This document shows, one piece after another, positions 3,818-43,288 of a DNA stretch of 64,000 nt (within the stretch, counting starts at the first letter, position 1; the number at the start of each line of letters is the position of its first letter). This DNA is from Octopus vulgaris (Eukaryota), in the NCBI GenBank assembly GCA_951406725.2, contig OX597832.1:54994001-55058000 (forward strand), read 5' to 3'. Made by a program: the position numbers and the translations under genes. The notes under the pieces were generated by a model. It was not told where the DNA came from. It ran no database searches and saw only the letters and a program-made list of their open reading frames with translations.

Positions 3818-3821
<4 letters not shown>

Positions 3822-4140
3822 TGTCTTGTTTTCACTGTCCTGTTCTTGTTACCACTTTCACCTTCCGCAAAAAAATCCCAAATTTTATTTAATTTGCTTT
3901 GCGGGAAGGACTGTTTCAACGAAGTCGCGTCTTGTCCTTCGAAACGCGGAGTAGAGGGAACAGGGACAACTGATGAAGGGGAATATTCTTTATGTTGTAT
4001 GTCCCGTTTCTCTGTTTGTCTTTTTCGTTGTTCGAAAAACGCTTCGTTTTCTGTTTTTGTTTTTATGTCTTCGTTTCTCATTGTGTTCAACGAGTTTTTG
4101 ATGTCCTGTACCCATATATGCATGTATATATACATATATA
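3818..4140 (+). mobile_element. Family A non-coding repeat (permuted-hammerhead element), copy 1, within (TA)n
   Basis: Shares CCGCAAAAAATCCCAAATTTTATTTAATTTGCTTTGCGGGAAGG...GGGACAACTGATGAAGGGG and a T-rich tail with copies at 18.8, 21.5 and 26.3 kb. Confidence 0.85.
3925..3981 (+). ncRNA. Non-circularly permuted hammerhead motif (family A copy 1)
   Basis: UCGCGUC^UUGUCC-UUC-GAAACGCGG...AGGGACAA-CUGAUGA-AGGGG. Confidence 0.65.
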
Positions 4141-16889: not shown

Positions 16890-17328
16890 TCACGTTACTA
16901 ACAACCATATCTATAGCTGGGGAAAATATTGTTTAGATATATCGATGAAGTTATATACGTAAAATGAGTGTCGACATATTCTAAGGTCACTCTTAACCAG
17001 TAAAGTACATTTACCGGAAACTAAAACGTAAAACTGGGAACGTACTGGCGAAACTGTGCAATCATTGAAGACATTCTACGAAATCATCACCAAAGAACGA
17101 AGAATAAAATTAACAGGTTTTATATTTCGATTACCAGAACTACGCCATTCGAAAGCAGTTTTCAAATGGACACCACCTGAAGGGGAAAGGAAGAGGAGAT
17201 GACCGAATGCAACACGGTACAACACATTCAAATCCGACATGAGCAAGGTTAATATTGAATGGCCGGATGCTCAGAAAACCACAGCCAACAGAAACCCATG
17301 ATATTAGCTTGCTGTCCAATGTGCTCAA
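16890..17328 (+). mobile_element. Degenerate RTE-clade LINE ORF2 C-terminal fragment
   Basis: RRIKLTGFIFRLPELRHSKAVFKWTPPEGERKRR*P..FKSDMSKVNIEWPDAQKTTANR matches the RTE pattern RRLRWxGHxLR..WxPxGKRxRGRP. Confidence 0.7.
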
Positions 17329-17697
17329 GAAATAGGTATTTCGTCAGCCGCTACGTTCTGAGTTCAAATTCCGCCGAAGTCAACTTTGCCTTTCATCCTT
17401 TCGGGGTCGATAAATACCAGTTACGCACTGGGGTCGATATAATCGACTTAATCCGTTTGTCTGTCCTTGTTCGTCCCCTCTGTGTTTAACCCCTTGTGGG
17501 TAGTAAAGAAATAGGTATATCGTCTGTCTTTACATTCCAAGTTCAGATTCTGCCGAGGTCGACTTTGCCTTTCATACTTTCGGGGTCGATAAATTAAGTA
17601 CCAGTTACGCACTAGGGTCAATGTAATCGACTTAATCCGTTTGTCTGTCCTTGTTCGTCCCCTCTATGTTTAGCCAATGTGGGTAGTAAAGAAATAG
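17325..17697 (+). mobile_element. SINE family 2, two tandem bodies without a head
   Basis: Same body consensus. Confidence 0.9.
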
Positions 17698-18639: not shown

Positions 18640-19115
18640 TCGTCCTCCTTGACTCTCTCGTTACTCACACGTTACCAACGACTACCTATCTTTCTTTCTT
18701 CCACTTCCTTTCTAAAGACAAGACATGCTTTTACCTGTCTCTTCTCAAAGCTCGTTTTTCCAGCGTTCACCACTTCACGTCGTCTTGGCTTAATAGCCCT
18801 CACCTCACCGTTTGCTTTTACTGTTTTGTTCTCTAACTGTCCTGCTTTTGCTACCACTTTAACCCTCCGCAAAAAATCCCAAATTTTATTTAATTTGCTT
18901 TGCGGGAAGGAGTGTTTTAACGAAGTCGCGTTTGTCCCTACCTTCGAAACGCGAAGATAAAACAGGGAACAACTGATGAAGGGATTGTTCTTCATGTTGC
19001 CTGTCTCGTTTCTCTATTTCTTTCTTTCGTTGTTCGATAAAAATGTTCGTTTTCTATGTTTTTTTATTTTCTCGAGCTTCGCTTTTTGTTCATGTTTTTT
19101 ATATCCTGTACTCAT
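18640..19115 (+). mobile_element. Family A element copy 2 (left boundary approximate)
   Basis: Shared hairpin, permuted HHR (18926-18984) and T-rich tail; lies between the two halves of a family 1 SINE. Confidence 0.8.
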
Positions 19116-21173: not shown

Positions 21174-21329
21174 TTGATAAAAAGGTGTTTTTTATCTAAT
21201 ATTTTATATATATTATATTGTGTGGAATTTGATTTAGTATTTCTAAATTGAATTCTTTTTCCTTGTAAGTTTGGATTTTATTCCCTCAAATAATAATTAT
21301 ATATATATTAATATAAATAATATATAAAT

Positions 21330-21903
21330 ATATGCATATATACATACATATATGTACATACCTACATATATATGTATATATACATGCATATATGGGTACA
21401 GGACATCAAAAAAACGTTGAATGCAATGAGAAACGAAAACATGAAAACAAAAACATAGAAATGAACATTTTTTCAAACAACGAAAAAAAACAGAGAAACG
21501 CGATATACAGCACAAGAGATATTCCCCTTCTTCAGTTGTCCCTGTTTCATCAACTCCGCATTTCGAGGACAAGGACAAGACGCGACTTCGTTGAAACAGT
21601 CCTTCCCGCAAAGCAAATTAAATAAAATTTGGGATTTTTTGCGGAGGGGTGAAAGTGGTAACAAGAACAGGACAGTGAGAACAAGACAGTAAAAACAATA
21701 AAAAAAGTAAAAACACTAAAAGACAGAACAATGAGAACAAAACAGTGAAAACAAACGATGAGGGCTGTAAAGGCAATACGTTGGGAGAATTATTCAGAAC
21801 GCTTAAGGAAACAGCTTATGAAGAGACAGGATAAGTTGGTCTGGTCTTTGTGAAGATAGCACTGAAGATAGCAGTTGGAAAGATGGCTTCCCTCTGATCA
21901 CGT
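21330..21903 (-). mobile_element. Family A element copy 3
   Basis: Reverse complement is closely similar to 3818-4170, including the tail. Confidence 0.85.
21523..21585 (-). ncRNA. Non-circularly permuted hammerhead motif, best-preserved copy
   Basis: UCGCGUC^UUGUCCUU-G-UCCUC-GAAAUGCGG-aguugaugaaac-AGGGACAA-CUGAAGA-A-GGGGA; stem III 6 bp, stem I 8 bp, stem II 5 bp. Confidence 0.75.
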
Positions 21904-21937
21904 GTATACATACACTACTACTTCTACAAATATTACA

Positions 21938-22813: not shown

Positions 22814-23405
22814 TTAGCTGAGTTAGAGGTTAAAATAACCGTCTAAGGGATAGAAATATCCATTACACTACCGGTATATTACCTGTACTTAACCATGGGT
22901 ATACATATGCAAACATCTTATGTTCATAAATTACAGGTAAAGACAAGGATAAACATGAGTTTAACAAGAATCGAAATTTAAAAGAAACAGTAAATATTTG
23001 ATGTAAGTCCATTGTTGTTCATCAGTTCTTCTCCATTCATATATGTGTGTATGTATATATATACGTGTACATATATATATACATACGTATACATATATAG
23101 ATAGATAGATATACATATATGTATGTATGTATTAAAAGGATGTGTCATAATACTATCCCACATATACAAAAAACAGCCATATCAACAATCCAACATACCT
23201 CCATCATCAGCTGCCCCACAGATATCATTATGGTTTCGACACCTGGGCAGTACCATTCAATCCGGCGGTGTCAACAGCACTAAAATAAGTGTTGTTTGGG
23301 AACAATCATACCAAAGAAACCACAACTTTCAAACACATCTACCCTATGTACAACAGTACCAGTAAATAAATTCAATAAGTTGTACGTATACATACATACT
23401 TAAAT

Positions 23406-26307: not shown

Positions 26308-26512
26308 GTGTAGATAAAACAGGGGACAACTGATGAAGGGATTGTCCTTTATGTTTCCTGTCTCTTCCTCTATTTGTTTCTTTCGTTGTTCGAAAAAAAG
26401 TTCGTTTTCTATGCTTTTGTTTTTCCATGTTCTCGGTTTTCATGTTGTTCATGATTTTTTTTTTTGACGTCCTTTACCCATATATGCATGTGTATATACA
26501 TATATATGTAGG

Positions 26513-42967: not shown

Positions 42968-43288
42968 GTGAGGGCGCGTGGCTTAGTGGTTAGAGCATTC
43001 GGCTCATGATCGTAAGGTTGTGAGTTCGATTCCCGGCGACGCGTTGTGTCCTTGAGCAAGACACTTTATTTCACGTTGCTCCAGTCCACTCAGCTGGCAA
43101 AAATGAGTTGTACTTGTATTTCAAAGGGTCAGCCTTGTCACTCTCTGTGTCACGCTGATTATCCCCGAGAACTACGTTAAGGGTACACGTGTCTGTGGAA
43201 TGCTCAGCCATTTGCACGTTAATTTCACGAGCAAGCTGTTCCGTTGATCGTATCAGCTGGGACCCTCGTCGTCGTAACCGGCGGAGTC

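Follow-up and report, generated by a model that had tools for sequence, protein, structure and literature searches.

A probable hammerhead ribozyme with its core opened between A9 and G10.1 in Naiad-clade Penelope-like elements and a non-coding octopus element

The DNA analysed was a window of 64 kb from the Octopus vulgaris genome. At 21523-21585 on its minus strand lies a hammerhead motif whose core residues are complete and whose three blocks follow one another in the order S-G-C, within a 5'-truncated, non-coding, Penelope-like element (PLE). Comparison of its copies and relatives makes it likely, in our judgement, that the motif belongs to a group of self-cleaving hammerheads whose core is open between A9 and G10.1, and which lie near the 3' end of Naiad-clade PLEs and of a non-autonomous family for which they probably supply the proteins. 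The parts of the motif and its host are as follows.

21300..21905 (limits approximate), minus strand: 5'-truncated copy of the non-coding Penelope-like element, between simple repeats, with a TA-rich tail
21601..21605, minus strand: detached 5' strand of stem II, lying upstream; G10.1 is 21605 (pairing, covariation)
21592..21599, minus strand: 5' strand of helix I, the connector of stems I and II, with 8 of 8 Watson-Crick pairs in this copy
21571..21585, minus strand: block S, with the 5' strand of stem III, GUC and the stem I strand (reading, pair counts, covariation)
21581-21579, minus strand: cleavage triplet GUC, predicted scissile bond 21579/21578
21556..21569, minus strand: block G, with the 3' strand of stem II (C11.1 being 21565), GAAA and the 3' strand of stem III (reading, pair counts)
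21564-21561, minus strand: GAAA, as read on this strand
21542..21549, minus strand: 3' strand of helix I, abutting the stem I strand (pairing, covariation)
21529..21543, minus strand: final block of the motif, with the stem I partner strand and the CUGAAGA core box (reading, pair counts)
21535-21529, minus strand: CUGAAGA, as read on this strand
21523..21528, minus strand: post-core A-GGGGA, an alternative register for stem II (pair counts)

A sequence-only reading of this DNA had proposed a non-circularly permuted, pseudoknotted hammerhead with segments in the order A-B-C. The segments do read in that order on the minus strand; it corresponds to S-G-C and to none of the circular orders CGS, GSC and SCG. 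Stem I forms all eight of the pairs claimed (one G-U), stem III all six (two G-U), and every residue of the claimed core (CUGANGA, GAAA and GUC) was found. The GUC is well placed for the predicted cleavage at the 21579/21578 bond. Position N7, described as free, is A or U among the 84 copies (of 109) in which stems I and III are formed. The cleavage triplet in these copies is GUC, GUU, GUA or AUC, never NNG, and so always NUH. An NUH triplet with a variable N7 is the pattern of tolerance known from hammerheads. The motif had been expected to escape type I-III descriptors and Rfam indeed returned no hammerhead anywhere in the window. Unconstrained minimum free energy (MFE) folding did not recover the pseudoknotted fold (z 0.16), as expected of a program that handles nested pairs only. 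Two elements had been missed by the earlier reading: the 8-bp helix formed by 21599-21592 with 21549-21542, and the upstream stem II strand at 21605-21601.

The host element has a unit of ∼745 bp. Its copies share ∼250 nt 3' of the core, are variably truncated at the 5' end and mostly lie beside TA or TG repeats; units are in tandem in locus L022, and an inverted 5' piece is found in L026. Of 85 loci 83 were oriented, and in these no open reading frame of the unit's own was seen. By the marks listed in PMC8557442 (5' truncation, partial tandems and inverted 5' pieces), the host appears to be a non-autonomous PLE. Searching the genome (2.8 Gb in 227 contigs) for copies gave 2,269 candidates, of which 40 were scored. 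Exact patterns for families A, B, F and H matched 318, 515, 1061 and 400 times, counts that are lower bounds, and the reversed-pattern controls matched 0 times; five exact patterns including that of a Naiad-type family (below) gave 2,584 matches, again with 0 in controls. Over 282 nt, subfamily H and family A share 69% identity. A divergent member of the non-coding family (L121:189-285) has a C following the core box, and its upstream stem II is extended by a sixth pair. The window itself contains three further, defective copies.

3818..4107, plus strand: damaged copy of the non-coding element that lacks 5 nt of the S-G linker and stem II
18803..19063, plus strand: damaged A2-subfamily copy; small deletions affect the cut site and the sequence next to stem III
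26310..26461, plus strand: copy truncated ∼24 nt 3' of the predicted cut, without blocks S and G

A partner element of the non-coding family was not found. A recently active PLE (L092, L097 and many other sites) has a 781-aa frame with RT and C-terminal GIY-YIG and tandem 3' repeats; it was considered as the partner but was not supported, with no hammerhead in its 3' end and no common 3' sequence seen. Other matches to a G-then-C pattern numbered 230 in the genome, against 126 in the control. Groups D, E, G and similar among them showed no S block by eye and were rejected, and group C is an ordinary type I hammerhead. A repeat family distinct from the non-coding element (L119, L125, L144) carries an ordinary type I PLE-like hammerhead with an extra 9a A, a long AU-rich stem II and a palindromic stem III. 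Loci L146-L151 have long inverted arms around GAAA...CUGAAGA, with no S block seen. Elsewhere in the window there is a weak tRNA-like match at 42974-43043 on the plus strand (29.5 bits), probably a tRNA-derived SINE head, and a tandem 180-bp dispersed repeat at 2182-2733 and 17327-17697 that is common in the fetched loci.

The helices of the motif are kept by compensatory change. Collecting copies genome-wide and examining covariation, as had been proposed, revealed that stems I and III are compensatory between subfamilies. In an alignment of 18 chosen rows from subfamilies of this genome, 11 of the 15 pairs of stems I and III and of stem II as formed by the upstream strand change on both sides, and 98.1% of cells pair, compared with 29-45% in slid controls. 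The score was reached by 0 of 500 shuffles, a count that is not a probability because the rows are related by descent. In a second alignment (A1, 17 chosen rows, in three of which, all Naiad-type, the 5' part is misaligned) both partners change in 13 of 24 pairs, and 0 of 500 shuffles again matched. This alignment also covers helix I, formed between the 5' flank and the G-C linker, in which five of the six counted pairs change on both sides. Among 19 hand-anchored examples the G10.1-C11.1 pair is invariant and the upstream stem II is Watson-Crick at 95 of 95 pairs, a value never equalled with row-permuted partners in 10,000 tries.

A second ribozyme of the same layout lies 1.7 kb from the first, in a 3' fragment of an autonomous Naiad-type element (window 23130-23385, minus strand).

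23204..23272, minus strand: second ribozyme, detached layout, of an autonomous Naiad-type family; triplet GUA, predicted cut 23251/23250

With stem II 6/6, helix I 5/5, stem III 5/5 and stem I 6/6, this appears to be the best ribozyme copy in the window. The 3' end of its family matches by eye the published end of Naiad_Ovul, which has 290 exact matches in the genome, the one in the window being at 23204-23272. The non-coding family shares with this Naiad-type family only the ribozyme layout. RT fragments with a weak RVT_1 match lie upstream of the Naiad-type ribozyme in loci L335 and L323. A word-indexed protein search found no relatives but a HMMER search did. Three of the relatives (P0017, P0033 and P0050) have an N-terminal GIY-YIG domain, a C-terminal RT and the DKA motif. 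With the domain order taken from these relatives, the family fits the Naiad clade.

An alignment of 15 of the 76 relative proteins was used to take the best 80 of 217 metagenomic loci, which were searched with a descriptor that allowed all block orders. Among these best 80 of 217 loci it matched 13 detached motifs, whose pairing in the upstream helix is partly by construction, since at least 4 Watson-Crick pairs were required there for selection, and four motifs of type CSG. All were in the 3' UTR. The same 80 loci gave no hammerhead of types I-III and no contiguous SGC, and their antisense strands gave 0 matches. Type CSG was described in PMC10085705 from two metagenomic sequences that cleave in vitro. 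A relaxed scan, covering the 71 loci whose 3' sequence was sufficient, found 13 detached motifs, three CSG and one weak SGC, and no motif in the remaining 54 Naiad-like 3' UTRs; controls gave 1 of 71 antisense strands and 1 of 213 shuffles. Clean type CSG motifs are at L387:3460-3564, L425:3594-3689, L426:3727-3822 and L437:3786-3875. A possible contiguous SGC with a weak score lies 1.4 kb past the Naiad-like ORF at L385:4632-4717, and a detached-type motif with imperfect stems at L424:3075-3160 was missed by both descriptors. Rfam found no hammerhead in 20 motif-less Naiad loci, nor in 16 chosen loci at E 0.5. No Naiad relatives were found in viral contigs, and four pattern matches in them had no matching S block and were taken as chance. 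In a few loci (L369 and L379) inspection by eye showed the 5' flank forming a further helix with the 3' tail at the A9/G10.1 junction, a feature that is not general. In a quick RT tree, from an unfinished run in which the octopus rows were less than 30% filled, the detached and CSG forms are interspersed; such a tree cannot order the two forms.

By eye, both forms also appear in published Naiad consensuses, the detached layout in several phyla. The ends of 26 of the 54 Naiad consensus records in File S5 of PMC8557442 were inspected by eye, with names assigned by the order of the metadata sheet. Seven have the detached layout (Obim, Ovul, Dst-4, Bfor, Chem-3, Movir-2 and Plae), although stem I is only 2 bp in Bfor; Esco probably has it; four are CSG (Parc, Nbra-3, Hpol and Smim); and 14 show no motif in the part inspected. 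PMC8557442 describes Naiads as being without canonical hammerheads and flags eight families, one of them from octopus, as 'HHR_half_core'. By eye, four of these eight are CSG, two are core-split, that is of the detached layout, and one is probably core-split. Bivalve and hemichordate Naiad ends in File S5 showed no hammerhead, and they have another conserved 3' motif of ∼60 nt in common.

These comparisons bear on whether the resemblance to a hammerhead arose by chance and was multiplied by transposition, an explanation that we regard as extremely improbable. High copy number does by itself conserve sequence, and MFE folding was unremarkable. Nevertheless, chance would not be expected to give compensatory changes in four helices, a common layout in the unrelated sequences of distant Naiads or near-empty controls. 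The motif at 21523-21585 is real. As judged by sequence comparison, the family has four helices, an invariant core, a G10.1-C11.1 pair, an NUH triplet and, in Naiads, a 3'-UTR position.

The strand that makes stem II is the point at which our reading departs from the earlier one, which had paired block G with the post-core strand. In the copy at 21523-21585 that pairing forms as described, with 5 of 5 pairs (one G-U), and is favoured at −6.9 kcal/mol versus −3.6 kcal/mol for the upstream register, which has one mismatch and one G-U against block G. The 5-bp stem rests, however, on two changes that are unique among the copies listed; with the usual letters of the family, CCUUC, post-core stem II has 4 bp, two of them G-U. 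Families A, B and F cannot decide between the partners because all three strands (CCUUC before GAAA, GAAGG upstream and AGG post-core) are kept. In family H, for which 20 of the 400 matches were fetched, the upstream strand is GAGCA and the strand before GAAA is UGCUC, so that three upstream stem II pairs are swapped together, while the post-core AGG is unchanged. In the 18-row alignment 97.8% of cells pair in the upstream stem II and three of its five pairs change on both sides, compared with 78.9% and a single C-G to G-U change for the post-core stem. Here the fifth post-core pair fails in 16 of 18 rows and the other four mostly hold, as C-G, U-G, U-G or C-G, and C-G or G-U in most rows. A partner of at least 5 bp is found upstream versus post-core in 81% versus 16% of 77 non-coding copies, and in 75% versus 16% of 32 Naiad-type copies. 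A post-core partner of at least 4 bp is present in 81% of the 77 non-coding copies, the average in the 32 Naiad-type copies is 2.5 bp, and in all 13 detached metagenomic relatives it is 0-1 bp. Stem II of the family is therefore probably formed by the upstream strand, and the earlier pairing is probably wrong for the family. A weak post-core register persists in the non-coding family and is the stronger of the two registers in the copy at 21523-21585 only. The description of this copy as intact is doubtful under the family fold, which leaves an A-C mismatch in its upstream stem II, although it may by accident take a contiguous SGC fold.

The persistence of four post-core pairs in most rows might alternatively mean that the active fold of the non-coding family is a contiguous SGC hammerhead, with post-core A-GGG and an extra 9a nucleotide, and that the upstream helix is an off-state or an intermediate. 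An extra 9a nucleotide and G10.1-C11.1 are typical of PLE hammerheads (PMC4209133), the copy at 21523-21585 favours that register, and L385 provides one weak example. We consider this unlikely. A post-core stem II is impossible in 13 of 13 detached metagenomic examples and is short in the Naiad-type copies (above), the upstream strand has three Watson-Crick compensations, and its position is exactly that of stem II', ahead of helix I, in the CSG examples.

The detached layout can be compared with the hammerheads already described. Eckert et al. (2023; PMC10085705) recognised six types, with SGC found only in metatranscriptomes. As to whether the ribozyme had been described before, the S-G-C order is thus already published, but the octopus family is probably not of that type. 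It resembles type SGC (HRIMA-1 and variants) in block order, in the short S-G linker joining stems I and II, in the full core and in an extra helix tying the stem II' flank to the stem I' flank. It differs in that stem II' of type SGC directly follows CUGANGA, whereas in the core-split form it stands first in the motif, at the 5' end, and the core box ends ∼70-90 nt further downstream. In addition, the helix I partner is 3' of the post-core stem II' in type SGC and, in the octopus family, a covarying strand upstream of block S. A stem II' within 0-2 nt of CUGANGA, as in type SGC, is possible but weaker in the non-coding family and is not found in the Naiad-type copies or the 13 relatives. The cyclic order is identical in all these forms; SGC opens the circle before S, CSG after G (stem III) and the core-split form after A9. 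In PMC10085705 an unbroken block C is an explicit assumption, and according to that paper no known alignment has more than 1-2 nt inserted at A9/G10.1. The core-split arrangement is therefore probably outside the six types. The minimal type I hammerheads of PLEs and of non-LTR retrozymes (PMC4209133; bioRxiv 10.64898/2026.07.22.740005) are likewise hosted by PLEs or their derivatives, in tandem or pseudo-LTR units, and have G10.1-C11.1. They are, however, circular in order, with a tiny palindromic stem III, and act as dimers, whereas the octopus family has a stem III of 4-7 bp and a non-circular order.

PLE hammerheads commonly have a nucleotide inserted between positions 9 and 10.1 (PMC4209133), and the tolerance of insertion there suggests that the backbone is free at this point and might also tolerate a break. 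The Naiads of Craig et al. (2021; PMC8557442) share TA-repeat targets, 5' truncation, partial tandems and inverted 5' pieces with the octopus elements, and an N-terminal GIY-YIG with RT and DKA with the autonomous relatives, but are described there as lacking canonical hammerheads, whereas the Naiad-type family of this genome carries the core-split form. The unfamiliar order and opened core of the ribozyme would explain why Naiads were thought to be hammerhead-free. In the literature covered, which excludes most subscription journals and the bioRxiv supplements, so that an earlier description is possible, we found neither the core-split form nor permuted hammerheads in Naiads, and no report of a backbone break tested at A9/G10.1. 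The core-split form is not described in the accessible parts of PMC13725137 and PMC3088659.

The 5' ends of genomic copies may point to cleavage. From 137 copies of family A chosen by a marker ∼150 nt 3' of the predicted cut, 90 were mapped. Their starts pile up just 3' of this cut: 20 of the 90 fall at -5..+24, where 4.9 were expected (scan p 0.004 over all 30-nt windows), and 0 of 90 at -35..-6. The interval -4..+8 has ten starts (1.9 expected) and +9..+36 has 14 (5.4 expected). The windows were set after inspection of the data. RT run-off from a cleaved template would explain the sharp edge. The pile-up may partly reflect RT stalling in paired RNA, which could explain the ends at +9..+36 and, less well, those at -4..+8.

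The strands of the transcript are in the order II' - helix I - S - short linker - G - helix I' - stem I' - CUGANGA. The core would be complete only after CUGANGA has been transcribed, whereupon the transcript would fold and be cut after H17. The 5' product would be held through stems II and III and helix I, ∼19 bp in all. Reverse transcription from the RNA's 3' end, primed at TA-rich targets 3' of the ribozyme by a Naiad protein acting in trans, would often stop on reaching the nick or slightly before it, so that the resulting copies begin between 0 and +25. Use of Naiad proteins by the non-coding family is part of this proposal. Cleavage of tandem or read-through transcripts would set the template's 5' end, possibly with the help of an element protein.

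The RNA structure could instead be real but cleave poorly or not at all on its own, serving as a protein-binding or RT-stop element, or needing a strand-swapped dimer or the Naiad protein. PLE hammerheads are weakly active in vitro (PMC4209133) or protein-dependent (PMC11167929); that of an Anolis PLE required protein, and insertion in vitro did not depend on the ribozyme (PMC11167929). In the octopus family helix I' joins stem I without a linker and may be strained, and stalling could account for part of the pile-up of 5' ends. Against this, all catalytic residues and the NUH triplet are retained across very divergent elements in which N7, N17 and the stems vary freely, and ends also pile up at -4..+8, which is expected to be unpaired when RT arrives. 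This reading seems to us improbable, more so than the contiguous fold discussed above, and we favour a self-cleaving core-split hammerhead.

On balance we lean, somewhat less firmly, towards a broader proposal: that the core split at A9/G10.1 is a seventh natural arrangement and active; that with CSG it is the standard ribozyme of many Naiads, from ctenophores and cnidarians to acanthocephalans, crustaceans and cephalopods; that it cuts transposition intermediates in vivo with both products kept paired; and that the forms interconvert by short duplications. The natural sequences are short (70-95 nt) and offer compensatory pairs ready-made, and so are testable by transcription. If the proposal is true, the rule that CUGANGA and stem II are inseparable would be broken, the list of six permutations would be incomplete and every descriptor built on that list would under-count ribozymes. 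Non-circular permutations, so far rare finds in metatranscriptomes, would be represented by thousands of copies in an animal genome. That more copies than expected start at the predicted cut would provide a genomic handle on the role of PLE hammerheads in vivo. The proposal would likewise do away with the idea of Naiads transposing without a hammerhead, an idea that has served as an argument for these ribozymes merely parasitising PLEs.
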